A DNA stretch of 64,000 nt from a virus. Taxonomy: Duplodnaviria; Caudoviricetes. Where the stretch lies: the IMG/VR virus record IMGVR_UViG_3300037424_001593, positions 12,964 through 76,963 of that record, one strand, 5' to 3'. Each line of letters opens with the position of its first letter. Position 1 is the first letter of the stretch. The translations under genes and the position numbers were made by a program. Shown in pieces: positions 1,515 through 52,091 of the stretch. Below the pieces are notes generated by a model. It did no database searches. It was not told the origin of the DNA and saw only the letters and a program-made list of their open reading frames with translations.

Positions 1515-2195
1515 TCAGGCCACCGGACGACGCTTCATGCCGTCGAGCCACCAGCGAAGACGGATCGCCTGATTCAGGTCGATCATCGTGTTGTACGTCT
1601 TGCACTGCAGGTAGAGGTTGCGGTCACTCTCGATGTAGATCGGGAGATTCAGCATCCACTGGTTGTTCGCACTGACGCGACCACCTGTGCCGACGTCGTA
1701 CGCTGAGGCGCTGTCGACGACCTCCGCATACGAGGTGCCGTGGACCACGACGCCGACCGACTGCGGGATCCCGCTGAAGGGCTGGCGAAGCTGGGGCTTG
1801 CTCTGGTTCGCGCCCACGTAGAGCTCGACGACGACGTCGCGCTCGAGCACGAGCAGATTGTGCCGCGAGACCATCGGGATGTCGGCGGGGGAGCCGATGT
1901 CCGCAGCCTGCTCCGGCGCGGCGGTGAGGCCGAACGCTTCGTAGGTGACGCCGTACACGACGAAGGCTTCGTCGTAGTTCGTGCGTGCCTTCGTGAGCCA
2001 GTTCGTATCGTTGTCCGTCGAGTTGCGGGGCGCGAGACCCTGCGACGAGACCGGATTACCCGACACGTACTGGAATGCACGGAGGTTGAGCTTGACGCCC
2101 GCCGCGAACTCCATGACGGAGTACTGGGGGTAGTGCAGCCACTCGTCGAGCTGGATGGTGCTGCCGTCGTAGAGTCGAAGATCGCGGATTGCCAT
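1515..2195 (-). CDS. Putative single jelly-roll major capsid protein paralog 3 (226 aa)
   Basis: Shares LRLYDG..DEW..PQYS, DTN, L..PI.I and C-terminal RLR..LDG.KRRPVA pattern with 2214..2933 and 2956..3699. Confidence 0.6.
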   Translation of the reverse strand: MAIRDLRLYDGSTIQLDEWLHYPQYSVMEFAAGVKLNLRAFQYVSGNPVSSQGLAPRNSTDNDTNWLTKARTNYDEAFVVYGVTYEAFGLTAAPEQAADIGSPADIPMVSRHNLLVLERDVVVELYVGANQSKPQLRQPFSGIPQSVGVVVHGTSYAEVVDSASAYDVGTGGRVSANNQWMLNLPIYIESDRNLYLQCKTYNTMIDLNQAIRLRWWLDGMKRRPVA

Positions 2196-2213
2196 GGTGG
2201 TGTCTTCCTCGAA

Positions 2214-2933
2214 TCAGGCGACGGGGCGCTTGTGATCGCCGAGAAGGTGGATGCGCAAGCGAATGCGCGCGTCTGCCGCAGAAGAGCCAGTGAAGGCCAG
2301 CGCGGAGGGCGAATCGATCGCACCGGTCGGCGCGATGAAGCGCGCCCGGAACGTCTCACCACCCTGGATGAAGAGGGGCGACGCGAGCTGCCGCACGCCC
2401 TTGATGCTCGTCGAGCCGTTGTTGCCGACGATGTAGCCTGCCGCGCCGGAGAATCCGACACCGCCCGCCGTGCCGCTCTCCGCGCCCGAACCGGCTGCGA
2501 AAAACGAGACCGGAACGCGGAGGTATTCCTTCACGCCCGCGATGAGGAAGCTCATGATGAGCGAGTCCTGAATGCGGAGCATGTTGCGCAGACCGACATC
2601 GGGGAAGATCTCGTTGTCCGCACTCGTCATGAGCGGCGCCTCGCTCGGCGTGCCCACATTGATGCTGTAGAACTCGATGCGGATCGCTCGGATGAGCATC
2701 GCTTCGTTTTCCGGCAGCTGTCCACCCTGACCCTGCAGGTTGGTGTCGGCGTACGTCGCGTTGCGCTGCGCCGCGCCCGGGATGGCCTGGTTCAGGCCGT
2801 AGGAGAAGGCGTCGAGCGTCGTGAACGAGCCCGTGCCGAGCTCCACGGTCGAGTAGAGACCCTCCGCCGTGGTCCAGTCGGCCGGCGTCATCACGCGGCC
2901 ATCTGGATATCGAATCTTGAGTAGCTGACCCAT
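2214..2933 (-). CDS. Putative single jelly-roll major capsid protein paralog 2 (start at MGQLLKIRYPDG)
   Basis: RYPDG..DW..GLYS, DTN...GQLP.NE..LI, ends RLRIHLLGDHKRPVA. Confidence 0.6.
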   Translation of the reverse strand: MGQLLKIRYPDGRVMTPADWTTAEGLYSTVELGTGSFTTLDAFSYGLNQAIPGAAQRNATYADTNLQGQGGQLPENEAMLIRAIRIEFYSINVGTPSEAPLMTSADNEIFPDVGLRNMLRIQDSLIMSFLIAGVKEYLRVPVSFFAAGSGAESGTAGGVGFSGAAGYIVGNNGSTSIKGVRQLASPLFIQGGETFRARFIAPTGAIDSPSALAFTGSSAADARIRLRIHLLGDHKRPVA

Positions 2934-2955
2934 GGTTCGCTTCTTCCCTTCCCGA

Positions 2956-3699
2956 TCAGCTGACGGGCTTCTTGTAGAGGCCTTCGAGGCACACACGCAC
3001 TCGATAGAGGCGCTGCGCGTTCGCGGCCGGAGAACCCACAGCGTTTGCGGTGAGACCGATGTTCAGGGCCTCGCTCGTGGGATTACGGACCTGGATTTCG
3101 AACTTCTCCTGGCCGCCGATGTGGATCGGGACCGTGAGACAGCGCGAAGCCTCCGCCGAAGGGATGCCGCTCGCGCCCGTCGGGATCGCCGACTGCGCTG
3201 CGACCGTACCGGCTGCGCCGGCCTGAGAGAACACACCGAAGCCGGTCGGCCAGTAGGCGAACGGTGCACGGTGCTTGAGCTTCTGGCTGATCAGGATCTC
3301 GAACACGGTGGAGCGGAACAGACGTCCGAGCTGCCACGGTGAGGGGAGCGGATCGAAGGCCAGCGTCTCGACAGCGGTCGTCGCGTTGCCGGCCGAGCTC
3401 ATCACGAGCGCTGCGAACTCGGGCTTGACGGAGTAGATCAGGAACTCCTCCGTCGAGCTGAGGCCGTTCGGCGTCGAGATGTTCGTGTCGGCTTCGGTCG
3501 CCGTGCGCTTCGTCGTGATGTTCTGGGTCGAAGAGACCTGATCGCTCACGACGTAGTTGAAGAGTGGGATGATCTCGTCCGTCGCGCCATTCATGATGTC
3601 GCAGGTCGAGTACAGCGGCTGGTCGGTCCAGTCCACGAACGCGACTTGCTGGCCGTCAGGAAGGCGGAGCGTCGTGATCTGGTTGATGGGTGAGAACAT
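2956..3699 (-). CDS. Putative single jelly-roll major capsid protein paralog 1 (247 aa)
   Basis: RLPDG..DW..PLYS, DTN..EEFLI, ends RVRVCLEGLYKKPVS. Confidence 0.6.
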   Translation of the reverse strand: MFSPINQITTLRLPDGQQVAFVDWTDQPLYSTCDIMNGATDEIIPLFNYVVSDQVSSTQNITTKRTATEADTNISTPNGLSSTEEFLIYSVKPEFAALVMSSAGNATTAVETLAFDPLPSPWQLGRLFRSTVFEILISQKLKHRAPFAYWPTGFGVFSQAGAAGTVAAQSAIPTGASGIPSAEASRCLTVPIHIGGQEKFEIQVRNPTSEALNIGLTANAVGSPAANAQRLYRVRVCLEGLYKKPVS

Positions 3700-3719: not shown

Positions 3720-4346
3720 TCAGACGCGGAAGCCCGGCGTACCGAAAGCCTTCATGTTGAGCCCAGCGTCACCGAGACCCTGGAGCTGGATGTTGGTCCC
3801 GTAGTCCCCGCTGAGACCGCGCATGCCCGCGATGGAATCAGGGCGGTGACCCTGCGGCCAGTTCTCGAGCACCGTGGCACCGAGGCCGTTCATCTGCGGC
3901 ATGACCATCCCCATGCCGGACGCGCTGCCGTACTCAGGGACGATCGCGCCGAAGCCCGCCGTGCCCGTCGCAGCCGGGGCGATGGCGAGCGTGCCCTCGC
4001 GGACGTACGCGCCAGCACCTGCGAGCAGGGCCGTGGTCGTCGCAGCGATGGCTGCGCGGTGACCCTGCTTGAGGCCGTACGCCATGCTCGCACCGAGGAG
4101 CGCGCCCGCGGCCATGCCGATCGCGGGGGCGTGTCGGTTGAGCATCGCGCCGGTCTGCGTGCCGGGCGAGAGCTTGGGCACGACGAAGCGGCGCACGAGC
4201 CAGATGGCTCCTACGGCCGTTCCACCGCCGACGAGGATCGGAAGCGCCGTGCCCACGACCGTGTTGGAGTCGAAGAGGCCGTTGACGCCCCGACGAACCT
4301 CGATGATGTTTCCGAATCCGCGCCGTGAGCGCTTACGCTTTGCCAT
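3720..4346 (-). CDS. Virion membrane protein with basic N-terminus and several xG[LFM]G motifs
   Basis: MAKRKRSRRGFG; about three hydrophobic helices; MNGLG, LQGLG; preceded by late motif. Confidence 0.7.
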   Translation of the reverse strand: MAKRKRSRRGFGNIIEVRRGVNGLFDSNTVVGTALPILVGGGTAVGAIWLVRRFVVPKLSPGTQTGAMLNRHAPAIGMAAGALLGASMAYGLKQGHRAAIAATTTALLAGAGAYVREGTLAIAPAATGTAGFGAIVPEYGSASGMGMVMPQMNGLGATVLENWPQGHRPDSIAGMRGLSGDYGTNIQLQGLGDAGLNMKAFGTPGFRV

Positions 4347-4365
4347 GGTGTGGTGGTTCCTTTTT

Positions 4366-4376
4366 TCTTATACCCC
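4366..4376 (-). promoter_or_regulatory. Putative late promoter GGGGTATAAGA
   Basis: One of seven GNGGKATAAGA copies; 19 nt upstream of ATG 4346. Confidence 0.7.
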
Positions 4377-4409
4377 GAAGGTGTTTGAAGACCTTTGCGA
4401 GGCGAGGGA

Positions 4410-4676
4410 TCAGCGCTTGCGAGCCTTCTTCGCCGTCTTCTTGGCGCCGAAGAGCTTGATGGCATTGCGCTGGCCCTTCTTCGTCGAGAAGCAGCGCTTC
4501 TTGCCGCTCTTGAACTTCACGCAGTACTTCTTCGCGGCCTTGGTCGCCTTGCGCGCCTTCTTGGCGGGCTTGCGCTTCGTGCGCTTGCGACGACCCGCGA
4601 GACCCGCGAGAGAGTTGATGGAACGCCCCGCGGGGTCACCCGAAGCGCGCACTGCGGTGCATCCACAATCTGCCAT
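4410..4676 (-). CDS. Lys/Arg-rich histone-like putative core protein
   Basis: LAGLAG followed by RRKRTKRKPAKKARKATKAAKK. Confidence 0.65.
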   Translation of the reverse strand: MADCGCTAVRASGDPAGRSINSLAGLAGRRKRTKRKPAKKARKATKAAKKYCVKFKSGKKRCFSTKKGQRNAIKLFGAKKTAKKARKR

Positions 4677-4678
4677 GA

Positions 4679-5050
4679 TCATCCTCGTTTCCACACGAAG
4701 TATGCGCCTACCCCGATCAAGGCAACCGTGCCGAGAGCGAGGAGCACAACGTTCTTTGTCTGTTGGCTCTGCAGGTGCGCGTATCGCGCCCAGAGATCTG
4801 CGTAACTGCGCTGCGCGCCAACGAGCTCCGAAGCAACGAACCCTGGGTCGTTCTCGAAGTTGTCCACACGCGTGCCGAAGAGCTCGATGTCCTCGAGCAA
4901 GCGCGACACCTCGGGCGAGCTCGAGCGTGATGCGAGCTCCTGCGCGAGCAGGTGCAGTCGCGTCGTCTCGCTTGAGAGCGCGCTGATGTCGTTCGCGAGA
5001 TCATCCGCCGCAGAGCCGAAGCCTCGCCCAGGGAAGTACGGAACGATCAT
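4679..5050 (-). CDS. Small virion protein with C-terminal TM anchor (start MIVPYFPGRGFG)
   Basis: Helical body; ends LLALGTVALIGVGAYFVWKRG. Confidence 0.7.
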   Translation of the reverse strand: MIVPYFPGRGFGSAADDLANDISALSSETTRLHLLAQELASRSSSPEVSRLLEDIELFGTRVDNFENDPGFVASELVGAQRSYADLWARYAHLQSQQTKNVVLLALGTVALIGVGAYFVWKRG

Positions 5051-5889
5051 CCGCGCCCCCGCTTCGTCCAGCGCTTGAACACCCAGACGCCGAAGATCCC
5101 AGCAACCACGGTCGATCCGAGGATAAGCGGCACGCGATACGGCGAAGGCCGATGCACGGGCGCTGTCACGTCGATCGCTTCGCCCTGAATCACATCCTGA
5201 GGCGCCGCGGTGCTCGAGCCCGGCACCGTGACCGGATACCCGTTCGGCACCTGACTCGCGGCTTGGAGCGCGAGGAAGAACGCGTTGCTCACGCTCGTAC
5301 CTGTCGCCGTAGGCGCAGGACCCGTCGTGGTCGTCGTAGTTGTGGCTGTTGCGACGCTGTTTGTGCGCGAGCTCGTGTCTTCGACGCCCACGCTCTGCGC
5401 GTAGGAGTCGATGTTCCAGAGCGCTTCGCCGTACGTGGTGCCTTGCGCAGCGGCGAGAACACGCTGCCGCGCGCGCGCAGCCCAATCTGTGGGTGCGCCC
5501 GCGCTCACGCAGTTGACCTGTCCGCGCAGCGCCGTGATGTTGTTCGCGACCTTCGCAGGCGTGTCGTTCATCGCTGCGTTTGCGACCGTGAGCAGATCCT
5601 TACGACAACTGCTCGCGCTCGGCGTCGTGCCTGAGAGCCAGAGCATGTAGAACGCGGCGTTGGCGGACTTGCGCCCCCACACACCGTCTGCGCTGAGCAG
5701 CGGCGGCGGCACAGGCCCGTTCAACTGGATCACACGTGCAACGAAATCCGGAAGCGCGTTGTTGTACGCGCCCTGAAACGACGCAATGAGCGCCTTCTGC
5801 ACATGCGCAGGCGCACGATCACCCATGCCCAGCACGGCTGCCCATGCGGACTCAGTGAGCGTGAACACCTGCGATTGCGAGAACGACAT
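5047..5889 (-). CDS. C-terminally anchored virion protein with possible peptidoglycan-binding motif
   Basis: LSADGVWGRKSANA resembles the L..DG..G..T..A PG-binding signature; Thr-rich linker; TM plus KRWTKRGRG. Confidence 0.6.
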   Translation of the reverse strand: MSFSQSQVFTLTESAWAAVLGMGDRAPAHVQKALIASFQGAYNNALPDFVARVIQLNGPVPPPLLSADGVWGRKSANAAFYMLWLSGTTPSASSCRKDLLTVANAAMNDTPAKVANNITALRGQVNCVSAGAPTDWAARARQRVLAAAQGTTYGEALWNIDSYAQSVGVEDTSSRTNSVATATTTTTTTGPAPTATGTSVSNAFFLALQAASQVPNGYPVTVPGSSTAAPQDVIQGEAIDVTAPVHRPSPYRVPLILGSTVVAGIFGVWVFKRWTKRGRG

Positions 5890-6062
5890 CAGCTCTTCTT
5901 ACGGCGCTTCTTGGGGGGCTTCGAGACCGACGTAATGCGGCCCTTGCTGTCGCGGCACACCTTACGGCGCACCGTGCCGATCTTCTGGACCTTGCACTTG
6001 ACCGTCTTGCCGACGCGGGCCTTACGCTTGGTCGCCTTCTTGCGCTTCTTCTTGGTAGCCAT
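5889..6062 (-). CDS. 57-aa very basic protein (not in ORF track)
   Basis: MATKKKRKKATKRKARVGKTVKCKVQKIGTVRRKVCRDSKGRITSVSKPPKKRRKKS; stop overlaps start of next gene. Confidence 0.65.
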   Translation of the reverse strand: MATKKKRKKATKRKARVGKTVKCKVQKIGTVRRKVCRDSKGRITSVSKPPKKRRKKS

Positions 6063-6092
6063 GGTGTCCTTACATTTCCTTGACCCCGAGGG

Positions 6093-6452
6093 TCACTTGG
6101 GGCAGACGGGGCGACCCTTGTGGATGCGGCAGCCCTTCTTGAGAGCCTTCGCAAACGAGACGCGCTTCATGCCCTTCGGCACGCTGCGTGTCGGAAGACC
6201 TGCACCGGTTGCACCGGCCTCGGCTGCCTTTTTCGAGCAGACGTAGACGTTCTTCTCGCCCTTGACGCGCTTGCAGCCCTTGCGGAGCTTGCTGCCGACC
6301 TTCGCGATCGACTTGTGCACGCAGACCTGACCCTTGCGGGGCTTGCACTTCGCTTCGCGCTCGAGACGCTTGCTGGTCTGAATCCGCGCGTAGTACGGAT
6401 CGACGTCGATGTCGCCCATCCCTCGCCTGCGTCGCCGTGTTCGCTTTGCCAT
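6093..6452 (-). CDS. Basic Cys-containing putative core protein
   Basis: MAKRTRRRRRGMGD; internal repeat KLRKGCK/KALKKGCR; late motif upstream. Confidence 0.65.
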   Translation of the reverse strand: MAKRTRRRRRGMGDIDVDPYYARIQTSKRLEREAKCKPRKGQVCVHKSIAKVGSKLRKGCKRVKGEKNVYVCSKKAAEAGATGAGLPTRSVPKGMKRVSFAKALKKGCRIHKGRPVCPK

Positions 6453-6489
6453 CGTGAGCACCTGTGGTCGGTGTTGAACCGTTCTTTTT

Positions 6490-6500
6490 TCTTATACCCC
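6490..6500 (-). promoter_or_regulatory. Putative late promoter GGGGTATAAGA
   Basis: Exact motif copy 37 nt upstream of ATG 6452. Confidence 0.7.
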
Positions 6501-6507
6501 GGCCGGG

Positions 6508-8721
6508 TCAGCGTGTTCGCTTGGCGAACAGCGCAAGGCCGCCCGCGAGCAGCAGACCGCCGCCGATGAACATCCAGGGGATCGAGCTCGATCCAGGCAC
6601 CACACTCGGCATGGTCGCCGCCTGCGCGATCGCGTTCTGCAGATCGAGCGGCGTCGGCATCGGCGTAGGCGTGCTACCGCTCGCCGTAGGCATCGACGAG
6701 CTCGTTGAAGTCGTCGCAGCATCCCCGCTCGAGGTGATGATGGGCAGCGAGCTCGGGCTCGACGCAAGTGCATTCTGATTGAGCGCCACCGCCGTGATCA
6801 CAGGATTCGCAACGACACTGCCATCCGCCGCAGGCGCGAGATTCGGCTGCACCGTCACCGTAGTAACGGCTTGCTGCCCACCCATCGCGAGCTCACCTGT
6901 GATGTGTGAGAGCGCCGTGATGAGCGCGGCTGGAAGCGAGCCTCCGCGGTCGAACGTCGCACACGGCACGTCGCTCAGCGTGCGCAGCACGAGCGGCTGC
7001 ATCACATCCGCTTTGTTGCCTGCCTTCTTCTTGCGGCGCATGGCAACAAGCGACGTGATGCCTGTTGCAAGCGTCGTTGCCGCAAGCGTGACACCGAGTG
7101 CGATCGGGTTACTGCTCGCGACCGCAGTCACTGCGCCGCCCACCTGCAGAATCGTCTGCTGTGCAGCCTGCGCTTTCGCATCTACCTGCGCCTGAGCAGC
7201 ACCGACCTGATACTCTTTCGCCTCGTCGATACTGAGGTCGATCAAACCGCGTTCGGCCCAGTATGTGACGTGATTGCTGATGTACCAGAGCGTCGCGTTG
7301 ATCGTGTGGTCCGCGAGACTCGTCTCGAGGATGGAACGAATCCAGCCCTCTGCCATACGGGCTGCGCCGTAGATGGACGTGTACGTGTACCACTCGTAGT
7401 CGTCCTCGCGGACAACGCGCGCTTCCCAACGACGCCACACGAACGTCGTATCTTCGGGATTACTGTGCAGGCACTGTTGATACCAAAAATGCCACGCACC
7501 CGAACGCAAATCGTTTTTGATTTGCGTCGTTGTACGGTCGGTCGGCATCAAGTTCTGTGGGCGAACACGATCAGACTCATTGCCCAGCATGTCGTTTGCG
7601 GTCCGCGAATCGTATTGCGGCGCGAAGTCACCCGTGAGCCAGCCCGTCGGCCCATCTGCGTCGTAGAAACCCATCCACAGAGGGCCCACAAAGAGCTTCG
7701 TGACCGTGCGGTCGATGTGCTTGAGCCACGGATCCTTGGCGACTTCCTTGTCACCGTAGTCCACGGGTTGCGGCGCGCCGCGGAGCTCGTTGAGCACGCT
7801 CTGCATGAGCGGCGGGAGCGCGCGATCCGGCAGCAGCACACCCGGCTTGCCGTCCGCATCCGTCATCGTCGTCGTCGGGTTCGCGGGCAGCAAAAACTGC
7901 GGCTGCACATTCGTCGCGAAGTACGCGAGCGAGACCCAGCTATAGACGATCGTGAACCAGTCGGCGGTGAGCCGCGATGCGTACTCGCGCTCGACGCTGC
8001 CCATCGGCATCGAGAGCCCGCTGTACGCTGGCTTGACGACGAGAAGTTGCGCGAGCGCTTGCTGAGCTCGAGCGTAGATGTCCGCGCGGATGCCGACACG
8101 CGCCGTGTTCTCTGCACTGCACGGAAGAAGCGCCGACGGATACTGGATCATCGCCCAGGTCTGGATGTCGGCCTTGAACTGCTGTGCCCCGTCAGGGAAA
8201 AGCTGAGGCTTGACGAGCGTCGCGACGGTGTCGTTGAAGCTCGCCGTGTACGCATCGACGACACCGCGCGCCTGCACCGTCTGCGCGTCGTACGTGATCT
8301 TCGTCACGTCGCGCGTTTCGGTGGGCGCCACGATCGTCGTCATGAGCTGGTTCGCGTTCGAGATGTTCTGTTGCGCCTGTGCGCTGAACTTCGCCGCGAG
8401 ATCTGCATCGCCGCTCTTCTGCGCACTCGCAGCAAACGCTGCCGCCGCAGCAGCAATCTTCACCTGCTCTTCAGCCTTCTGCTGAATCAACGCTGCTGTA
8501 GGCGAGCCTGTTTGCGCAGTCGCTACGACCTGCGCACGCGGCGCGCTGTACGTGTTCATCGCCGTACCCGCAGCAATCGCCGCTTGCTGTTGTGCAATCG
8601 CTTCTTGCCGCGCCGCTTCTGCAGTCTTCTTCGCTGCCTCTTTCTTGCGCCGATCGCGCGGAAGACCGAGACCCGCACCAAGCCCGTTCGCACCCTTTGG
8701 TGGAACGATGCGCGCTTGCAC
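6508..8721 (-). CDS. Large membrane-anchored virion protein (about 737 aa; probable GTG start at 8721)
   Basis: N-terminal ANGLGAGLG, Ala/Gln helical region, internal hydrophobic hairpin, C-terminal TM plus KRTR; ORF-track extension to 9240 overlaps another gene. Confidence 0.65.
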   Translation of the reverse strand: MQARIVPPKGANGLGAGLGLPRDRRKKEAAKKTAEAARQEAIAQQQAAIAAGTAMNTYSAPRAQVVATAQTGSPTAALIQQKAEEQVKIAAAAAAFAASAQKSGDADLAAKFSAQAQQNISNANQLMTTIVAPTETRDVTKITYDAQTVQARGVVDAYTASFNDTVATLVKPQLFPDGAQQFKADIQTWAMIQYPSALLPCSAENTARVGIRADIYARAQQALAQLLVVKPAYSGLSMPMGSVEREYASRLTADWFTIVYSWVSLAYFATNVQPQFLLPANPTTTMTDADGKPGVLLPDRALPPLMQSVLNELRGAPQPVDYGDKEVAKDPWLKHIDRTVTKLFVGPLWMGFYDADGPTGWLTGDFAPQYDSRTANDMLGNESDRVRPQNLMPTDRTTTQIKNDLRSGAWHFWYQQCLHSNPEDTTFVWRRWEARVVREDDYEWYTYTSIYGAARMAEGWIRSILETSLADHTINATLWYISNHVTYWAERGLIDLSIDEAKEYQVGAAQAQVDAKAQAAQQTILQVGGAVTAVASSNPIALGVTLAATTLATGITSLVAMRRKKKAGNKADVMQPLVLRTLSDVPCATFDRGGSLPAALITALSHITGELAMGGQQAVTTVTVQPNLAPAADGSVVANPVITAVALNQNALASSPSSLPIITSSGDAATTSTSSSMPTASGSTPTPMPTPLDLQNAIAQAATMPSVVPGSSSIPWMFIGGGLLLAGGLALFAKRTR

Positions 8722-8753
8722 AAGGTGCGGCTGTGTTCCGCTGCGGAAGATCC

Positions 8754-9617
8754 TCACCGAAGCACCACGATCCCGAGCACCGCAGCGACCGCGACGCCCC
8801 CAGCAACGTACATCCACGTCTTCGACGGCTCCGCAGCTGCAGGCGCTGCAGGACCCGCAGACGGCATATCGCCCGGAGGCGTCGTCACCGATGCGCTGTT
8901 CGTCGTCGCGCCTACGCGCTGCGTCTGCTGAATCGACTGCGTGAGCCCCGACGCGACGTTGCGCCAATCCATCGCAGTCTGACTCGCGGTGCCGACAGTC
9001 CCTGTGCGCGCTTCGGTACGCGCGTCGCAGATGTTCGTGTACAGCGACGTGAGAATGTTCGTCGTCGCGCCCGCGATCTGCAGGTTCTGTCGCGTATCCA
9101 CAGTGAGACCCTGTGAACCGACGACACCACCGCTCGTGGTCGTGGTCTCGCTGCGGAAACCGCCGCTCCCGAGCGTAGTGAGAGTGCCCCCAATCGCCCC
9201 GAGGATGCCCTGCGCAGCTTGCGCGCCCGTAGATGTGCATGCGCGCCCGTCGCCGCCGAGACCACGAAAGCCCGAGCGTGAGAGCCCTGTGCGCGCACCA
9301 TGAGCTGCAGCGAGCGACGCAATGCTCGCACCAACACGCGACGGCGCATCGTCGGCGAAACCGCTCGAAGGACGATAGACGCGCGCGCTCGGATCGACAC
9401 GACCCTCGAAGAGCACGCCAGGTACGGTCTGCGGCGGAGGCGTCGGCACGTTCTGCCGGCGCAGATCAGTCATCCGCATGTGCGCGGCGTTCGCTACGTT
9501 GCGCACAGCCATCGGCATGCGCCCAGCCGCACCATTGTCTTCGAAGAACGCACGCGGGGGACCGGGACGCGATACCGTGATCGAGAGGTCCGGAGCTCGA
9601 GACTTCATGACATGCAT
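8754..9617 (-). CDS. Virion protein with C-terminal TM anchor
   Basis: FRGLGG motif; ends WMYVAGGVAVAAVLGIVVLR. Confidence 0.65.
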   Translation of the reverse strand: MHVMKSRAPDLSITVSRPGPPRAFFEDNGAAGRMPMAVRNVANAAHMRMTDLRRQNVPTPPPQTVPGVLFEGRVDPSARVYRPSSGFADDAPSRVGASIASLAAAHGARTGLSRSGFRGLGGDGRACTSTGAQAAQGILGAIGGTLTTLGSGGFRSETTTTSGGVVGSQGLTVDTRQNLQIAGATTNILTSLYTNICDARTEARTGTVGTASQTAMDWRNVASGLTQSIQQTQRVGATTNSASVTTPPGDMPSAGPAAPAAAEPSKTWMYVAGGVAVAAVLGIVVLR

Positions 9618-9621
9618 CAGG

Positions 9622-10014
9622 TCACCGTTTCGCGGGCTTGCCGAAGCCCTGATAGAACGCGACGCCCGTCGTGATGATCGGGAAGAACGCCGCAGAGAGT
9701 CCCCAAAGCGCGCCGTAGCCGACGCTCTTTCGGTTGCGCTTGTACCCGTGGTACGCGCTTGCACCGAGGCACACGAGCCCAAGCCCGAGGCGCGCATACC
9801 CGAGTGGCGTAATCGTCATCTCGCCGAGCCCGCTGAAGCCCGCCATGCGGCTCGCGACCGCAGCCGGCGTGTGCTGATTCCACGCCTCGGTCGGTTGATC
9901 CGGCTGACCGATAGCACCCCACACAGGCGCGACGTTGTTCTGTGGGAGGCGCGGGCTCACGATCGGACGCGGGCGCCAATCCCATTGCACATCTGGCTGC
10001 AGACTGTTGTTCAT
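9622..10014 (-). CDS. Small multi-TM virion membrane protein
   Basis: FSGLGE then two hydrophobic segments flanking AYHGYKRNRK. Confidence 0.7.
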   Translation of the reverse strand: MNNSLQPDVQWDWRPRPIVSPRLPQNNVAPVWGAIGQPDQPTEAWNQHTPAAVASRMAGFSGLGEMTITPLGYARLGLGLVCLGASAYHGYKRNRKSVGYGALWGLSAAFFPIITTGVAFYQGFGKPAKR

Positions 10015-10020
10015 GACCCC

Positions 10021-10638
10021 TCAGCGCCCGTGAAAGTAGCGACGTTGCGCGTCTTGCATCTGCGCGACCTCACGCATCGCACGCCCGGAATCGACAGCCT
10101 TGTAGCTCGCGGCTTCCTGCTCCATGCGGCGCACAGCCGTACCGTACGCCTCGAGAGGCGCGCTGATGGGCTGCCGAAGCGGGCGGACACGCGGGGTCGC
10201 GACCTGCTCGGGCGGATAGTCCACAGCGGGCTGGCTCATCGCATTCGAGCCACCCTTCACTGCAGCCATTTCATACGTCTGTTGCACGCCGCCCGGAACG
10301 TTGGTCTGCCGGATCTCGCGGAGCCCCGAGCCGCTCTGGCGCATCGCCGAGGCGTAACCCATGGCTGACGCTGTCGCGGGGGTGCGTTCACCGCGTGCGA
10401 TGCCGCCTGGACCACGCTTGTGCATCTCGAGCGCCATCCCTTGAGGAAGGATCATCGCAGGCTGAAAATCCTGCGTCGTCGCGTTTGAACGAAACTGCTC
10501 GACGGCACCCGCGAACCGACGCGGATCACGCGTCGTGAGCGAGGTGCGGAGCAGGTCCACCGGCAACCGCTGGATCGCTTGCGGAGGGGTGAAAGCGCTA
10601 CCGAAGTGACCGCGGGGGTTGAAAACCGGATAGGGCAT
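10021..10638 (-). CDS. Hypothetical late protein (start MPYPVFNPRGHFG)
   Basis: ATG 8 nt downstream of late motif. Confidence 0.6.
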   Translation of the reverse strand: MPYPVFNPRGHFGSAFTPPQAIQRLPVDLLRTSLTTRDPRRFAGAVEQFRSNATTQDFQPAMILPQGMALEMHKRGPGGIARGERTPATASAMGYASAMRQSGSGLREIRQTNVPGGVQQTYEMAAVKGGSNAMSQPAVDYPPEQVATPRVRPLRQPISAPLEAYGTAVRRMEQEAASYKAVDSGRAMREVAQMQDAQRRYFHGR

Positions 10639-10646
10639 CGCCTCTA

Positions 10647-10657
10647 TCTTATACCCC
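10647..10657 (-). promoter_or_regulatory. Putative late promoter GGGGTATAAGA
   Basis: Exact motif copy. Confidence 0.7.
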
Positions 10658-10778
10658 GGCGAGAAAATGCCTTGCGGCCGGGGCTGCGCCCCGGTTACCG
10701 TTCGGGTGTTCGATCTTCGGATCGTGCACACCCAACTGGAACAGGGCGAGGAGGGCAAACCCACCCCGCCTTTTCCTT

Positions 10779-11412
10779 TTAGAACGACCCTGACCTTAGC
10801 CGTTGTGCGATCGCTGCGTCGCGCTTCCCCGTTCGCCGCTTGTTCCGGTGCACCTCTAAAACCGCCTCTATAACCTCGCGACCACGGCGCTCGTACGCTC
10901 GCTGCACGCGGGCAACAATCGCAGAGTGCTCCTCGTCGGTAACCTCATGCCAAATCCGCTCGAGCGTTGCCCGCCCAGCAAGGATCTCATTGACGAGGTG
11001 CAGCACACGCTGGGTCACACGTCCTCCTTCGTAGCCTCACCGGCTGTGAGCTCCGCCGCCCGCTCCTCGCACAAATGCACGCGTGCTGCGCGAAGGTCCC
11101 GCAGACACGCCTTTGCAGTGTGCTCAGCATCGAGCTCCAGATCGAAGAGCTCTTTGGTCGTGCCGCAGATGATACATTTCGCTTCGCTCATGCTTCTCTC
11201 CAGTCGAGCTGCTCGACAGCGTTCAAAAACGCCATCCAGGCGTCGAGCTCGTCGTAGCCTTCCACAACGAGCTCTGTGTCGATGATCGCAATCTCGCAGA
11301 GGATGCCATCTTTCGGTCCGTGACGAAACTGCACGTCGAACCCGGGCACCATCATGCGGCGCACCTCGACAGCGACTTCCTCGAGCGACTCCATGCTCCG
11401 GATGCTCTCCAT
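10779..11412 (-). CDS. Three small overlapping hypothetical ORFs (10779..11018, 11015..11191, 11188..11412)
   Basis: 4-nt stop/start overlaps; middle ORF has CxxC. Confidence 0.55.
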
Positions 11413-11567
11413 TCGCGCGTAAGAAGTCAACGGATCTAGACCCCTGAAAAGGCAAAGGCCCCAGGGAGATTGCTCTCTCGTGGGGTCCTCTGTGGGTTCG
11501 TCCTAAGACGCATACCGCTTTGGTGGATCCCAAGGCTACCCCAGCGGGGCGCAGCCCCGCAAGAGCC

Positions 11568-11607
11568 AAAAAGACAAAGCCCTCGCACGGTTTAGACGTG
11601 CGAGGGC
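11568..11607 (-). terminator. Intrinsic terminator
   Basis: Perfect 11-bp stem GCCCTCGCACG/CGTGCGAGGGC followed on minus strand by TTTGTCTTTTT. Confidence 0.75.
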
Positions 11608-11639
11608 GTAGTGCTTTTTGTGGTTTGAACAGAGCGGAC

Positions 11640-11891
11640 TTACTCGAACGTCGCTCGACTGCGGAAAGCGTAGTACCGCGGTCTTGTTTCCTTATAGGAC
11701 AGGCGGGCGAGCTCCCGCGTAGCGTCGCGCATGCTGCATCGTCTGTGCAGACCCTGCGCCGTTTCTCTGACGACCCTTTGTCTCGCTTCTTCGAGAGGCG
11801 CTTCCGCAGTGCGCCACTTCCAGCAGAGCCAGAAGCAGCACACCAGGAAGAGGAGCCAGAGCACACGTTGAGCATCGAGCAGACTGCTCAA
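11640..11891 (-). CDS. Small membrane protein
   Basis: N-terminal hydrophobic LWLLFLVCCFWLCW. Confidence 0.45.
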   Translation of the reverse strand: MSSLLDAQRVLWLLFLVCCFWLCWKWRTAEAPLEEARQRVVRETAQGLHRRCSMRDATRELARLSYKETRPRYYAFRSRATFE

Positions 11892-11903
11892 CGTGTCAAG
11901 GCA

Positions 11904-13046
11904 TCACGGGCGCAGCGCCATGTCGAGCGGATGCGGCTCGATCTGAAGCATCGTGAAGTCGATGTTCCACGCCGTGGTCACGCCCGTGTTCACAACGGTA
12001 ACGCCGACCGTGTCGAGTGCCGTAGCCGCCCATGAGCTCGCATACGGTCCGCTCGAGACCATGTCCACCGAAACGGACTCGGTGACGCCTGCGACAGGGC
12101 CACTGCCGTCGAAATGCACGCTGACGACAGGTGTCGCGCCTGCGACAGGCGACGTGAACACCCAGGTGATCTCGAACGTTGCGCCACCGGTGCGCGCATC
12201 GAGCACGCCGACAGCATTCGCGGCGAATCCAGGCGTGAAGAGCCCGGGGACACCCGCACCACCTTCGTCCGGGTCGAGGTTGGTGAACGCAGCCTGGTTG
12301 CTGTCGTTCTGTGCAGCGATGCCGAGGATGCGCGTGCCCGCAGCATTGCTAATGCACAGGCCGAGCAGGTTGCGTCCTGCGTTCGTGACGTCCGAGAACG
12401 TCGCGAGGCAGCGCGCGCGGATCACGAATCGATTCGTCGTCGGTATCGTGAAGTCGTTGATGGCGAAGAACACGCCGCCGACATCGAGCTCGGTCGATGC
12501 GAATCGAAGCGCACCACCGCTTACGCTGCGCGTGAGTCCCGCGATGTTCGCGCCGACGTCCATGTCGATCGCAGCGTCGAACTGCGTGACATCCGCGCCG
12601 TTCCAGCGCCACAGCACGTTTCCACCCGGCGCCCATTGCGCGCCGTCGTAGATGAGCGAATCACCGAGTGCAGGCGCAGCTGCGCTGACAGTAACACCTT
12701 GAATCGTCGTCGCATCACCACCGCCTGCACCGCTGTAGATGGCGGGGAGCGGCGTGATGGCGCTGAAGACCGTGGGATAGGCGATCCCGCGGCGAGCACA
12801 GGCGTCGATGAGCTCAGCGTCGGTATACGCGAGCGGACAGAGCACACCGTTGTGCCCGAGCGATTCCCACTGTTGGATGATCTGCGCGATCGTAACCGCG
12901 TCGGACGTGTTGATCGCGAGCTCGACAGGCTGATCTGTCGAGGTGAGACCGTAAATGTGCGCATACGGATCGACTGCACCGGGCTGAAGCGTGCCCGTGA
13001 ACGAGACAATCCATCCGCCACGCCATTCATACGCTGTTGTAGGCAT
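11904..13046 (-). CDS. Putative spike/receptor-binding protein (380 aa)
   Basis: About 100-aa N-terminus paralogous to 37711..38349; fibre-type motif IQGVTV...P..GDSLIYDGAQWAP; beta-rich distal domain. Confidence 0.6.
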   Translation of the reverse strand: MPTTAYEWRGGWIVSFTGTLQPGAVDPYAHIYGLTSTDQPVELAINTSDAVTIAQIIQQWESLGHNGVLCPLAYTDAELIDACARRGIAYPTVFSAITPLPAIYSGAGGGDATTIQGVTVSAAAPALGDSLIYDGAQWAPGGNVLWRWNGADVTQFDAAIDMDVGANIAGLTRSVSGGALRFASTELDVGGVFFAINDFTIPTTNRFVIRARCLATFSDVTNAGRNLLGLCISNAAGTRILGIAAQNDSNQAAFTNLDPDEGGAGVPGLFTPGFAANAVGVLDARTGGATFEITWVFTSPVAGATPVVSVHFDGSGPVAGVTESVSVDMVSSGPYASSWAATALDTVGVTVVNTGVTTAWNIDFTMLQIEPHPLDMALRP

Positions 13047-13085
13047 TTTTCTGCTTTTCCTTTTCTTCTTACGTTGCCGGCACCA

Positions 13086-13652
13086 TCACATCGCGAAGTC
13101 GCGGTACTGCTTCGACCCCGCGTACTCCCAACCGGGAGTAGAGCCTTTGACCGTCGGATCAAGCGCAACGAGTGGACCCCCGCGACGTCCACGCGAGACC
13201 ATCGTGTAAACGTGTTGCCAGACTTCATTGTCTGTGCTGATCACTCGCGCGAGCGTATTCGAGAAGCCAAGCGCCTTCAGTAAAGAGCACAGAACGATCG
13301 TGCTGTCGTCGCAATCGCCGAGGCCATAGAACAATGTTCTACGCACAGTGCAAAACAGATCGTAGTCGGGAGGATCGTGTTCGTACTCGACGTTGAGCAC
13401 GCAGAAATTCCACACCGTGTTGATCACGCAGGTATCATTCGTGATGTTCGTACACGGCGCACAGCGGTGAACTTTACCCCACGCAGTGACGCGGTCACGT
13501 CCTGTGAAGAGCCCTCGCGCGAGCTTGTGTGTTTCCGGATCTGCGAGTGATTTTTGGACCTGTCGGCGGATCAACCCGACGTGGTCGTCGAGGTTGTTGG
13601 TCTCCCAGATACGTGCACCGGGGTCGTTCAAATCGATGGCGCGCTTGGACAT
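13086..13652 (-). CDS. Transglutaminase-like cysteine protease/peptidase
   Basis: GDCDD (Cys), WQHVY (His), ALDPT (Asp) in the order of the transglutaminase-like superfamily triad. Confidence 0.8.
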   Translation of the reverse strand: MSKRAIDLNDPGARIWETNNLDDHVGLIRRQVQKSLADPETHKLARGLFTGRDRVTAWGKVHRCAPCTNITNDTCVINTVWNFCVLNVEYEHDPPDYDLFCTVRRTLFYGLGDCDDSTIVLCSLLKALGFSNTLARVISTDNEVWQHVYTMVSRGRRGGPLVALDPTVKGSTPGWEYAGSKQYRDFAM

Positions 13653-13660
13653 GTCTCATT

Positions 13661-13671
13661 TCTTATACCTC
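13661..13671 (-). promoter_or_regulatory. Putative late promoter GAGGTATAAGA
   Basis: 8 nt upstream of ATG 13652. Confidence 0.7.
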
Positions 13672-21141: not shown

Positions 21142-21929
21142 GTAATGATGTGACGTGGTTCGACGAGCAGAGCGACTTTGCTGGCTTCACGTGGAAGCAG
21201 CTTTCGCGCGACACTTTCGAGGGCAGGCGTCCGGATCGTGCGAGGGGTGTTCTACGTGCGCTCGGGAACCACAAGTACAGCTTCGAGACCATCTACGAAG
21301 ACGGCGAGACAACGTGCACGCGTGCGAGCTCGCTCGAGCAGCTACTCGCTGCGTGGTTCACGCCGGTCGATCTCGCGCACCGGATAGCTGCGTGGGCGCT
21401 CGACGGTATAGCCCCGGATGTTCGACGAGAGCTCCGCGTGCTCGAGCCTTCCGCTGGAGAAGGTAACATCGCACGAGGCCTGCTCGCGGCTGGCGTGCTC
21501 GAGAAGAACCTCACCCTCGTCGAGATCAACCCGACGCGCGCAGCACGGCTCGAGCTCATGTTCCCGTTCGCGCGCGTCATCTGCGCAGACTTCTTGTCGT
21601 TTGTGAAGAGCTACAAAAACCTCGCATGGGATCTCAGCGTCGGGAATCCGCCATACGACGGCGGGCTCGATACCCGACATGTTAGCGCGCTCATGTCGCG
21701 TGTAGATGACGCGGTGCTCCTTTTGCCCTTGCAATCGCTTGCAGGTGGTGCGCGCTACGATGCTGTGTGGTCGCAACTCGTATTGCTCCGACTCGCTGTT
21801 CTCGTGACGCGGCCAAAGCACCCGAGTGGTGATCTCGAGAGTGCATCAAGCGGTAAACGCGACAGCATGGTCGTAGACGTAAGTACGCGCCCCACGGATG
21901 CGGATACGCGCTTGGAGTGGTGGATATGA
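21138..21929 (+). CDS. Orphan amino-DNA methyltransferase (N6A/N4C type) with extra N-terminal domain
   Basis: WFTP, VLEPSAGEG (SAM binding), VGNPPY (catalytic). Confidence 0.8.
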   Translation: MSNDVTWFDEQSDFAGFTWKQLSRDTFEGRRPDRARGVLRALGNHKYSFETIYEDGETTCTRASSLEQLLAAWFTPVDLAHRIAAWALDGIAPDVRRELRVLEPSAGEGNIARGLLAAGVLEKNLTLVEINPTRAARLELMFPFARVICADFLSFVKSYKNLAWDLSVGNPPYDGGLDTRHVSALMSRVDDAVLLLPLQSLAGGARYDAVWSQLVLLRLAVLVTRPKHPSGDLESASSGKRDSMVVDVSTRPTDADTRLEWWI

Positions 21930-22171
21930 CCCCGCGTACAAAGAAGATGCTCGAGCTCGTCGCATCGTTCGAGGAGTACGCCGAGGACTGCATCGCTGAG
22001 GCGTGCCACAAGCTCGACATGGCGCGGAGCATCATCACGTTCTCCGAAGAGTCGGAGCGTATGAAAACCTCGTCTACGCAGATCGCAGAAACGTCACTTC
22101 GTCTTGCCGTGCGGCGAAAGGCTGCGCTACAAGAGCTGCGCGAGTTCATTGTCGACTCCGCGAAAGGTTGA
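21926..22171 (+). CDS. Small helical hypothetical protein
   Basis: Overlapping start/stop, coherent ORF. Confidence 0.55.
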   Translation: MTPRTKKMLELVASFEEYAEDCIAEACHKLDMARSIITFSEESERMKTSSTQIAETSLRLAVRRKAALQELREFIVDSAKG

Positions 22172-22175
22172 TGTG

Positions 22176-22748
22176 ATGCGTTTCTCTAGAACCTATTTCT
22201 TTACGGCGTACGTCGCGGGACTCTTGTTCGCTGCGTTCCTGATGGACCTGTGCAACATTACGTCTGCGCAGGGTCAAGACCATCAAGCATGGCAAGCCGA
22301 CGTCGTATCGCTTGCGCGTCTGTGCGTGAACGAGGCAGGTTGGCCTTCGCCTGAAGGCAGCAACGACTGCGCGGCGATCGGCCGTTACGCACGCGCTCGA
22401 GCGGACAGCAACAACGAAACGGTTGCGGCGTACATCGCGCGCGTTCACTGGCGTCACACATCGCCTACACGACGCACGCGCGTCTGGGTGCGTGGGCTCA
22501 ACGCTGAGCTCACAGAGCCTACCGGTTGGCCCGCAGACCTCGACTGGGCCACATGGGGCCGTGTTCGATGGAATGCTGCGCTCGAAGATGCTGCGCAGAT
22601 CCTTCGGGGTCGGCGCACAGCGTGCACCGAGACGCCGCATACTTGGGGCGGCTACATAGATCGCGAGCGCATCGCGCGCATGCTCGCGAACGGCTACCGT
22701 CAGATCGACTGTGGGTCAACGCGCAACGTTTTCATGAGGAGAGGCTGA
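22176..22748 (+). CDS. SleB/Hydrolase_2-like cell-wall hydrolase with N-terminal anchor
   Basis: LARLCVNEAG...DCAAI resembles LA..I..EA..E of SleB-type enzymes; N-terminal hydrophobic stretch. Confidence 0.55.
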   Translation: MRFSRTYFFTAYVAGLLFAAFLMDLCNITSAQGQDHQAWQADVVSLARLCVNEAGWPSPEGSNDCAAIGRYARARADSNNETVAAYIARVHWRHTSPTRRTRVWVRGLNAELTEPTGWPADLDWATWGRVRWNAALEDAAQILRGRRTACTETPHTWGGYIDRERIARMLANGYRQIDCGSTRNVFMRRG

Positions 22749-26876: not shown

Positions 26877-27416
26877 ATGACGATTCGATACGGCGGCGGA
26901 AGTGGTGATTTCCCGGTCTACGAGCCTGGCACGTACGACCTCGAGATCATGGAAGCCAACCAGAAGACGGCGAAGAGCGGTAATCCGCAGCTCGTCGTGA
27001 AGTTTCAGTTCGTCGGGGGCCGTTACGACGGCAAGACGATCACGGGCTTCTACTCGCTCATGGAGAGCGCGGGCTGGCGCGTGAATCTGCTCACCGATGC
27101 AGCGGGCATCGAGCGCTCGGAGGTCGCACGTACGGCCGACGACGTGCCGGTGTACGAGTTCGAGGAGGGTGATCTCCTCGGCTGCATCATCCGTGCGGAC
27201 ATCACGGTCAGCACGTACGAGGGCAAGGAGCGCAACAACATCAACAAGGAGCAGCCGGCGCCGAGCTCGGTCGATCAGGCGACCAAGCCGAAGACCGATG
27301 CAGCACCCGCAGCTCCGGCGAGCGCACCGGCTGCAGCAGCGCAGGCGGCACCCGAGGCAGCGCCCGCGCAGGCGGGTCGCTTCTCTCGTCCGGCTCGACG
27401 CGCGGCGGGGGCCTGA
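26877..27416 (+). CDS. DUF669-like single-stranded DNA-binding protein
   Basis: PGTYDLEI.......KSGNPQL..KF; Ala/Pro-rich tail. Confidence 0.75.
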   Translation: MTIRYGGGSGDFPVYEPGTYDLEIMEANQKTAKSGNPQLVVKFQFVGGRYDGKTITGFYSLMESAGWRVNLLTDAAGIERSEVARTADDVPVYEFEEGDLLGCIIRADITVSTYEGKERNNINKEQPAPSSVDQATKPKTDAAPAAPASAPAAAAQAAPEAAPAQAGRFSRPARRAAGA

Positions 27417-34616: not shown

Positions 34617-35152
34617 ATGGCCGACACAAAAACGCTCCTCTACGCCACGTTCGCAGGTGCTGCGACCGGCGCCGTTGCTTGGTTCCTCCTGCGCCCAATC
34701 GTGGACAAGGGGATCGAGTCGTCGCTGCGCACCCAGCTCGAGCGACAAATCCCCGAACAGCTCAACCGCGAGCTCGACAGCAAACTTCGGCAGTACGGCT
34801 TCACGCCGGAGACCGGGCAGCAGATCGCGCGCCTTCTCGCGACGCTCGATCGCACAGGGATCCTCTGATGGCCCGCAAGCGCAAGCGCCGGGGGCTTCGC
34901 GGAGTTTTGCCTCCGGGGACGACGCTTCCGATCATCGTCGCGAGCCTCGCGAGCTTCGGCGTTTTTACGACGTTCCTGCTCGCGCGCGCCAAGGCGAAGG
35001 AAGGCGAGCTCGCGGCGCTCGGCGAGCAGCTCGCGCCGCAGATCGCGGAGGCCGCGGTCAGGCGGTACATCAACGAGCGCTTCGGCTTCACGCCCGAGCG
35101 TCTGCAGAGCATCACGAGCCGGGTCAACATGATCCAGTCCCTCACGCGGTGA
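34617..35152 (+). CDS. Two paralogous small membrane proteins (34617..34868, 34868..35152)
   Basis: N-terminal TM; both contain FLL...Q...GFTPE..Q.I. Confidence 0.7.
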
Positions 35153-37466: not shown

Positions 37467-37706
37467 ATGCGAACGGTTACCCTCGACGGTCTCGGCGGCG
37501 TGATGCCTGTAGCGAGCAACGCGCGAAACACGCAACTCTACGGTTTTGGTGCGGCAGACGATGCGTCGCTTCCGGAGGGGATGATGGTTTACGACGCGCG
37601 TGCGATGCGTAGGAATCACATCATCATCGGTGTGGCTGGGCTCGTTGTGGGCGGAGCGCTAGGCGCCACGTTCATGCACATGTCGATGAAGCGAAAGCGA
37701 AGGTAG
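37467..37706 (+). CDS. Small virion membrane protein
   Basis: LDGLG, LYGFG; C-terminal TM plus KRKRR. Confidence 0.7.
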   Translation: MRTVTLDGLGGVMPVASNARNTQLYGFGAADDASLPEGMMVYDARAMRRNHIIIGVAGLVVGGALGATFMHMSMKRKRR

Positions 37707-51914: not shown

Positions 51915-52091
51915 GAGGTAGCTACCTCTCTTCTTATCCCACGAGGGGTAGCTACCTCCCCCGTTGCTACCAGGTAGCTACTCCAGGGCGGCAGGGTAGC
52001 TACCTAATATGTAGGTCTTTATCCCACATATGTATTACCTATAATAGGTCATACCTTTTCTTCTGTCAGTAAAGAATATATTTACTGACGG
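51915..52091. promoter_or_regulatory. Palindrome-rich control region between divergent late (left) and early-type (right) genes
   Basis: GGTAGCTACC x3 plus 2 degenerate, late motif at 51932, ACCTAT-A-ATAGGT, GTCAGTAAA-N7-TTTACTGAC. Confidence 0.7.

Follow-up and report, generated by a model that had tools for sequence, protein, structure and literature searches.

What could be the reason for the repeated occurrence of one short glycine-containing peptide in the late proteins of a bacterial virus, and is this peptide connected with the cysteine enzyme whose gene heads the same late operon? The question is raised by IMG/VR virus record IMGVR_UViG_3300037424_001593, a genome of 76,963 bp with direct terminal repeats that is rated complete, of which bases 12964–76963 constitute the stretch of 64,000 nucleotides analysed here (the window; positions are counted from its first letter). 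The late block runs leftward over ~25 kb and comprises 37 genes, from position 13652 to beyond the left end of the window; the gene coordinates of a preliminary description were reproduced by independent gene calls made with a codon model. That description had noticed a recurrent motif in virion-type proteins together with a co-regulated transglutaminase-like cysteine protease, and had envisaged a maturation or sorting system in the manner of adenovirus. The motif, a tag having G-[LFM]-G as its core, is real, conserved across relatives and selected at the protein level, and the enzyme (13086..13652) is co-regulated and co-conserved with the virion module and with the tag. The reading we favor, with a probability of roughly 0.4, is cleavage at the tag by the enzyme in the course of maturation.

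The tag is in excess over chance

In its usual form the tag reads hydrophobic-x-Gly-[Leu/Phe/Met]-Gly-[Asn/Ser/Ala]-hydrophobic and lies outside transmembrane (TM) helices, with preferences for a hydrophobic residue at −2, Arg, Ser or Gln at −1, Asn or Ala at +3 and Ile, Leu or Val at +4. The 37 late proteins contain 25 G-[LFM]-G against 9.4 expected from whole-protein shuffles, a number reached in none of 500 shuffles, whereas the other 105 proteins contain 13 against 9.9 expected; the association with late proteins proposed in the preliminary description thus goes beyond a Gly-rich background.

Could the pattern be a functionless by-product of the composition of Gly-, Ala- and Leu-rich membrane proteins in a high-GC virus? 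Since membrane and Gly-rich segments could inflate the count, block shuffles were chosen, and with blocks of 8 and 15 residues the 25 late occurrences compare with 11.6 and 10.8 expected, respectively, being reached in none of 200 shuffles. When the TM segments are removed, 23 occurrences remain against 8.2 expected, and the permuted residue order, [LFM]GG or GG[LFM], is not enriched (19 observed, 23 expected). At the DNA level the pattern has 25 matches in the coding frame, represented by 19 different 9-mers, versus 1–4 in each of the other five frames; an excess so restricted to the coding frame is attributable to selection on the peptide, and a DNA-level repeat as source of the pattern was rejected for the same reason.

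Relatives were obtained through a protein-cluster search, megablast of the 10-kb region against phage records having given no match and back-translated scans of viral contigs with a 396-residue capsid-like protein and with the enzyme having yielded no relatives. One of the capsid paralogs described below has ~50 metagenomic relatives, and seven syntenic loci (38–62% identity) were fetched which, with the genome of the window, make up the 8 genomes compared here. A two- to three-fold excess of the tag recurs in six of the seven, and pooled they contain 118 tags against 66 expected from block shuffles, or 100 against 47 outside TM segments. As to the controls, PRD1 displays no excess (3 vs 4.8 expected), which again speaks against mere composition. 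On the other hand, P23-77, which has no such enzyme, shows a mild excess (12 vs 6.8) that fades outside TM helices (8 vs 4.8), and in the relatives G-[AVI]-G is also somewhat enriched (152 vs 114), as a compositional origin would have it. With the excess surviving both the 8-residue block shuffles and TM removal, and the tag being retained by orthologues at corresponding sites and by the great majority of 30 representatives of one family (see below), the compositional explanation is already largely refuted by the block shuffles and by conservation, and we concede it next to no probability.

The carriers of the tag

Among the 37 late proteins, 14 possess a TM helix and three stand out by extreme basicity (net charge +23 to +30). 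The tag often lies at the junction of a polybasic leader or tail with the rest of the protein, and many tagged late proteins are tail-anchored and have a short basic C-terminal tail. The main carriers and their neighbors are the following.

3720..4346, minus strand: 208-residue virion membrane protein with polybasic leader, RGFGNIIEV, TM segment at residues 29–52 and C-terminal repeats GFGAIVPEY and NGLGATVLE; tag sites at nt 4311–4319, 3948–3956, 3909–3917, 3879–3887 and 3771–3779
4410..4676, minus strand: 88-residue very basic protein (net charge +30) with SLAGLAG directly before an RRKRTKRK tract
4679..5050, minus strand: 123-residue tail-anchored membrane protein with N-terminal GRGFGSA (site at nt 5015–5023) and TM segment at residues 98–121
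5047..5889, minus strand: 280-residue tail-anchored protein with VLGMGD at residue 21, a site that is not conserved among orthologues
5889..6062, minus strand: 57-residue polybasic protein (net charge +26) having no tag
6093..6452, minus strand: basic protein starting MAKRTRRRRRGMGD (ATG at 6452), tag site at nt 6414–6422
6508..8757, minus strand: 749-residue virion protein in which a basic tract comes after ANGLGAGLG (sites at nt 8665–8685)
8754..9617, minus strand: 287-residue tail-anchored protein with FRGLGG at residue 119
9622..10014, minus strand: membrane protein of 130 residues in which FSGLGE precedes the TM helix and a C-terminal QGFGK leads into a basic tail (sites at nt 9823–9831 and 9640–9648)
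10021..10638, minus strand: 205-residue basic protein with the N-terminal variant PRGHFGSA, loosely conserved
37467..37706, plus strand: 79-residue tail-anchored protein of a second late island, with LDGLG and LYGFG (nt 37488–37496 and 37542–37550), a C-terminal TM helix and a KRKRR tail

All the motif instances listed in the preliminary description are present in the sequence: RRGFG, MNGLG and LQGLG at residues 10, 154 and 190 of the 208-residue protein, GRGFG at residue 10 of the 123-residue protein, ANGLGAGLG in the 749-residue protein, FRGLG (8754–9617), FSGLG (9622–10014), LDGLG with LYGFG (37467–37706), and GRGFG in the gene beginning at 51169. Some call for qualification: LAGLAG before RRKRTKRK (4410–4676) is not a strict G-x-G, RRGMG is encoded by the gene at 6093 only if translation starts at the ATG at 6452, and LNGLG at 27416 belongs to the replication module and finds no support there. 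The notion that the motif often lies within the first 10–15 residues holds for ~5 proteins and is no general rule, the N-terminal bias being modest.

The tag occupies orthologous positions in proteins that are only 25–45% identical. The best documented case is the 208-residue protein, whose orthologues have the N-terminal tag (kept in six of seven) and the two C-terminal repeats at conserved positions. Among 30 cluster representatives of this family the polybasic leader, which varies between 9 and 35 residues, ends in G-[FML]-G-[NS]-[IV] in ~26, while three have a Gly-Thr-Gly variant or start inside the tag, and in all 30 a highly conserved segment comes next. In two relatives (L004, 9334–9978, and L005, 9301–9993) public gene calls start at an internal Met in or just after the tag, and these short N-termini were considered as natural “pre-cut” forms; this was rejected, the starts being mis-called, since the real open reading frames begin 30–33 codons upstream and encode long basic leaders followed by RIGMGSV (L004) and TRGLGNM (L005).

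Conservation is also seen in the other carriers. Orthologues of the 123-residue protein read RLRGFGNI, SMRGIGDV or ALMGLGAL, or have the degenerate RLGALS and HLGAIS; in those of the protein with its start at 6452 the basic leaders are followed by RRGIGE and LRGLGD (two of two conserved); those of the 749-residue protein have GTQGLGRL, RLRGLGSE and GVSGLGRL. In the 130-residue protein site 62 is kept in four of six orthologues, all of which end in a TM helix, QG-[FYVI]-[GA]-[KER] and a short basic tail, an arrangement that mirrors the N-terminal layout of basic leader plus tag; a 352-residue protein likewise has a tag site before its TM helix at orthologous positions. The 88-residue protein, which in L003 has an orthologue with NLGGLGRV in the equivalent position, resembles a core protein or one that condenses DNA.

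The three small proteins 4410–4676, 5889–6062 and 6093–6452 have the appearance of histone-like or adenovirus-core-like DNA condensers, which are unusual for a phage, and in two of these three highly basic proteins a tag or near-tag lies at the edge of the basic tract. In the second late island a 94-residue protein (34868–35152) starts MARKRKRRGLRGVL and continues into a TM helix, a layout close to that of leader plus tag which escapes the strict pattern. The product of 51169–51912 has RKGRGFGAL and a basic C-terminal tail, and its gene is preceded by a late-promoter motif at 51932–51942; it may be another tagged virion protein, and the GNAT label given to it earlier is unsupported by any Pfam match at E ≤ 0.01. 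The capsid paralogs, in which the motif had not been seen, do include a carrier: GFG at residue 153 of the 247-residue paralog (2956–3699) is kept in six of seven orthologues, the other two paralogs lacking it. This GFG opens a variable loop of ~25 residues (153–181) modelled with a predicted local distance difference test score (pLDDT) <50, and the capsid protein itself might be processed or docked there.

The cysteine enzyme

13086..13652, minus strand: 188-residue LapG-like cysteine enzyme of transglutaminase fold (Cys114/His147/Asp165)
13661..13671, minus strand: late-promoter-like motif GAGGTATAAGA, 8 nt upstream of the enzyme ATG
4366–4376, 6490–6500 and 10647–10657: further copies of the late motif ahead of virion genes

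The late motif ascribed earlier to the enzyme gene was recovered, GNGGKATAAGA having 7 matches against 0.03 expected, one of them at the enzyme. In the window, and likewise in both relatives for which this junction was recovered, the enzyme is the first late gene and diverges from a DUF3987 primase-helicase; all 8 genomes have it in the same position.

The enzyme belongs to the transglutaminase-like superfamily (PF01841, papain-like fold): it matches Pfam PF01841 (Transglut_core) with 25.8 bits (cut-off 23, E 1.4e-5) and its AlphaFold2 model has a pLDDT of 88.6. The C-H-D triad recognized in the preliminary description is formed by Cys114 (in GDCDD), His147 and Asp165, invariant in 13 homologues. 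A profile of the enzyme run against all PDB sequences finds LapG (4u65_E) as sole match at E < 0.01 (E 1.2e-4, ~19% identity), the triad aligning with the Cys, His and Asp of LapG and GDCDD with GDCEDY. By structure (Foldseek, VIA) the matches are the putative protease 3kd4 (Z 12.3), LapG (Z 10.1) and 3isr (Z 9.6), and the 19 PDB representatives at Z ≥ 8 nearly all belong to the transglutaminase-like superfamily. The nearest solved relatives are proteases, and the transglutaminase-like fold suggested at the outset is upheld, a proteolytic activity being predicted. Neither a signal peptide or hydrophobic N-terminal segment nor a TM segment was detected in the enzyme; having no N-terminal signal peptide, it is to be regarded as LapG-like and not as a member of the periplasmic BTLCP family (DUF920, MEROPS C93). 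The YGLG of the enzyme itself abuts the catalytic Cys and is not conserved, the relatives having GVGDC or GGGDC.

An indication that catalysis matters comes from a search of 1.8 billion representatives, which gave 44 close enzyme clusters. In ~10 of these, whose proteins are enlarged to 366–550 residues, an intein (Hint/Intein_splicing plus LAGLIDADG) lies directly before the catalytic Cys of GDCDD, this Cys being the +1 residue of the intein (L004:1-1530; P0066, P0071, P0076, P0077, P0084, P0089, P0094, P0097, P0101 and P0093). Inteins typically lodge in the catalytic sites of indispensable proteins, and the position of these exactly at the catalytic Cys points to an enzymatic activity that is real and important.

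Among 50,697 phage records the sole enzyme homologue is gp34 of SSIP-1 (profile E 5e-17), a cultured, tailless, membrane-containing phage in which gp34 is annotated as a structural protein. Membrane-anchored homologues carry the tag between anchor and catalytic domain, namely RARGMGEP in SSIP-1 gp34 (21296–22210) and GVNGLGKM in L015:1791-2510; these two cases hint at self-release. The neighbors of a distant homologue on an 8-kb contig (L014) have no tags, the stretch being too short to interpret.

If the fold is accepted, on what does the enzyme act? It might be a virion-associated or lysis cell-wall peptidase similar to the pseudomurein endoisopeptidases, cleaving links in the peptidoglycan or lipoproteins of the host when the virus enters or leaves, with the tag unrelated to it. 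In support of this, PeiW and PeiP match the model with Z 9.3 and the Pei of phage psiM2 is in the BFVD list; furthermore, in L006 the enzyme is followed by a 72-residue TM protein and by a shorter M23 peptidase (L006:653-1255) in a layout reminiscent of a lysis cassette, and gp34 of SSIP-1, a virion protein, has a TM helix at its C-terminus. However, in the clade of the window the enzyme has neither signal peptide nor TM segment, the genome already possesses an Amidase_2 and an M23 peptidase, NlpC/P60 wall hydrolases match the model with a Z of only ~4, and the closest sequence match, LapG, cuts proteins; a cell-wall function is accordingly judged improbable.

A second possibility is a true transglutaminase that hardens the particle through Gln-Lys isopeptide cross-links, the tag marking or flanking the donor sites. 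Factor XIII, TG2 and TG3 do match the model with Z 8.9–9.6, the residue preceding the tag is fairly often Gln or Asn (LQGLG, YQGFG, TQGLG) and many Lys-rich proteins are encoded nearby. Yet sequence and profile searches return LapG and no transglutaminases, Gln at −1 is far from universal, Arg and Ser being commoner, and the enzyme is a small single domain devoid of the accessory domains of known cross-linking enzymes, so that cross-linking appears very unlikely.

Does the enzyme cut at the tag?

The enzyme may be a protease rather than another thiol enzyme, the tag may be its substrate and cutting may actually occur. According to this favored reading, a soluble LapG-like protease would recognize the small-hydrophobic-small tag and cut at it during or after particle assembly, and the cuts would trim leaders and free basic peptides or domains, with a logic like that of the adenovirus protease at its (M/I/L)XGX↓G sites (the arrow marks the cut) implemented on a different fold. 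Two features of the tag are consistent with this: it often marks the boundary between a polybasic leader of variable length and a conserved body, as expected of a leader that is removed, and its flanking preferences extend over ~8 residues, which matches the footprint of protease subsites.

Several observations weigh against cleavage. The co-occurrence of tag and enzyme across relatives, which the preliminary description proposed to check, is found in eight of eight genomes; it is non-discriminating and carries little weight because every genome has both, no relative without the tag or without the enzyme being available. If structure is the only guide, LapG is level with true transglutaminases (Z 9.6) and pseudomurein isopeptidases (Z 9.3). 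The residues that follow the tag (GAIVPEY, GNIISVRK) are conserved as strongly as the tag itself, more than a cut site needs. The 208-residue protein has 5–8 copies of the tag, and cutting at all of them would shred it. Moreover, the first Gly of the tag is sometimes lost, as in the degenerate orthologues mentioned above, so that the invariant core may be hydrophobic-Gly-small-hydrophobic. In SSIP-1, finally, the excess of the tag outside TM segments is not significant (9 vs 5.2, p 0.08) and resembles that of the enzyme-less P23-77; the enrichment in SSIP-1, which was considered as independent support, is weak once TM segments are removed. A predicted complex between the enzyme and residues 1–36 of the 208-residue protein gave “no answer” (score 0.08) and is evidence neither way.

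Some of these same observations are what would be expected of a tag that is never cleaved but acts as a docking or sorting signal, a turn-plus-strand peptide that binds the capsid jelly roll or an assembly factor and thereby recruits membrane and core proteins into the virion or ties the membrane to the shell, the enzyme having an unrelated job. Indeed, the strongly conserved residues after the tag are strand-like (GAIVPEY, GATVLE, GNIISV), several tandem copies occur in one protein, the tag is present in 11 of the 14 TM-containing late proteins versus ~5 of the 23 others, and one capsid paralog has a conserved GFG of its own. What docking leaves unexplained is why the first place in this operon invariably falls to a cysteine enzyme that appears essential and why the tag is so often situated at the edge of a variable-length polybasic leader. 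An uncleaved docking role fits the data about as well as cleavage does; taken by itself, it is a possibility that we place on the unlikely side. The membrane face on which the tag would be exposed is ambiguous by the positive-inside rule, 10 tags being on the basic side, 21 on the opposite side and 18 undecided.

Could the tag be cut by a different peptidase, either the membrane-anchored M23 metallopeptidase of the virus or a protease of the host? The M23 family is known for acting on Gly-Gly and Gly-X bonds (lysostaphin, LasA, beta-lytic protease), and the M23 protein of this genome (L001:2513-3712 in genome coordinates, E 1.6e-14) is a product of the late operon that ends in a TM helix region and is itself tagged; in L006 a shorter M23 protein is encoded two genes after the cysteine enzyme. 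Its PHROG matches, on the other hand, are mostly endolysins and peptidases, and we attribute hardly any probability to this possibility. The genome has no homologue of adenain, Ulp1, S78 or ClpP, the profiles for the first two (PF00770, PF02902) giving no match at E ≤ 10.

The type of virus

1515..3699, minus strand: capsid paralogs of single jelly-roll type, three in tandem (226, 239 and 247 residues), the 247-residue one modelled with AlphaFold2 and compared by structure

Matches to Pfam and PHROGs are nearly nil among the 37 late genes, the exceptions being the enzyme (13086–13652), the M23 peptidase and a pectate-lyase-like spike, and a scan of ~40 larger proteins revealed no portal, terminase or HK97 capsid. 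The 247-residue capsid paralog (2956–3699), folded with 36 homologues, gave a model with pLDDT 83.9 whose best structural match is the major capsid protein of SPV1 (Z 8.0, root-mean-square deviation 3.1, 138 residues aligned), ranked first also by Foldseek, followed by HHIV-2 (Z 6.5), HCIV-1 (Z 6.0) and VP17 of P23-77 (Z 5.8), all of these Z values being middling. The model displays the single jelly-roll fold of the major capsid proteins of viruses of the SH1, P23-77 and SPV1 type, and this resemblance indicates that the genome is that of a large tailless phage with an internal membrane. The 396-residue protein yielded only weak leads to PRD1 P2/P3 in an ESM Atlas query (scores 0.76–0.78), which were not used.

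A Walker A motif is found in none of the late-block proteins, no dedicated profile search for a packaging ATPase of the FtsK/HerA type having been made, and in three proteins of the genome, all of the replication module: the DUF3987 helicase, an AAA_24 protein and a 179-residue protein of the DUF669 family (26877–27416). The packaging ATPase expected for tailless membrane-containing viruses was thus not identified by the Walker A scan of the genome.

Comparison with known systems

The resemblance to adenovirus noted at the outset is literal, IVGL↓G and QRGF↓G being real sites of the adenovirus protease (AVP; PMC4246237). AVP (adenain, MEROPS C5) acts at (M/I/L)XGG↓X and (M/I/L)XGX↓G, and in both systems numerous virion precursors of the core or with membrane activity, basic core proteins included, bear a short Gly consensus, and the enzyme is made late. 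A recurring consensus site on several virion proteins, as is typical of adenain, exists in the phage, where it is enriched, conserved and late-specific. The differences are that adenain has a His-Glu-Cys active site whereas that of the phage enzyme is a Cys-His-Asp of transglutaminase/papain-like type, and that the phage has a bacterial host, single jelly-roll capsid proteins and a cleavage that is only predicted. Peptidase_C5 and C48 give no match in the genome; there being no adenain or Ulp1 homologue, any adenovirus-like logic would use a different fold, as had been surmised.

LapG is a Cys-dependent site-specific protease that cuts LapA between Ala108 and Ala109, removing an N-terminal module (PMC3032545). 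It shares with the phage enzyme the aligned active-site motif and is its sole significant solved relative by sequence. Unlike the phage enzyme, LapG is periplasmic and calcium-dependent, is controlled by LapD and cyclic di-GMP and has one substrate class; the phage enzyme has no signal peptide, is ~19% identical to LapG and has many candidate substrates that present Gly-hydrophobic-Gly instead of Ala-Ala. The PeiW and PeiP enzymes of methanogen phages are likewise virus-encoded, with a transglutaminase-fold Cys-His-Asp (Z 9.3), but they cut cell-wall isopeptide bonds, carry wall-binding repeats and have no match to the phage enzyme at the sequence level.

In SSIP-1 some virion proteins are tagged near the N-terminus (gp37, VNRGLG; gp53, DPGMGS), as in the phage described here. 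The two differ in that gp34 has 304 residues and a C-terminal TM helix and the enrichment of the tag is weak; SSIP-1 proteins other than gp34 do not match this genome. In phage T4 capsid-targeting sequences are removed by the prohead protease gp21, and there too short N-terminal leaders with a conserved junction are common to unrelated internal proteins. T4, however, is a tailed phage of HK97 fold with a serine protease and L/I-x-E sites, whereas in the present phage most carriers are membrane proteins, and the tag is in many instances internal or repeated. By analogy, the present system resembles both adenovirus maturation and T4 leader removal; it is a member of neither, since fold, host and capsid type are all different.

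What the system may mean

Our literature search found no description of a maturation protease or shared tag in tailless membrane-containing phages, and we know of no maturation protease or shared processing or sorting signal described for PRD1, PM2, P23-77, SH1 or SSIP-1. It can tentatively be proposed, with less conviction than cleavage itself, that prokaryotic tailless membrane-containing viruses with single jelly-roll capsids have a proteolytic maturation code of their own, in which a LapG-like protease would act on a Gly-hydrophobic-Gly tag borne by at least 12 membrane and core proteins, polybasic peptides set free by the cuts would condense the DNA and membrane proteins would be switched to their mature state.

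The conserved tag and the apparently essential cysteine enzyme provide a testable model of how internal proteins are selected or finished in such particles, and SSIP-1, in which the enzyme homologue is annotated as a virion protein, is a cultured phage. If cutting were confirmed, a new specificity would be added to the LapG-type protease family, possibly with use as a sequence-specific protease tool. If the favored reading is true, phages of this type would have in this enzyme their first known maturation protease and the system would represent a convergent counterpart of adenovirus maturation.

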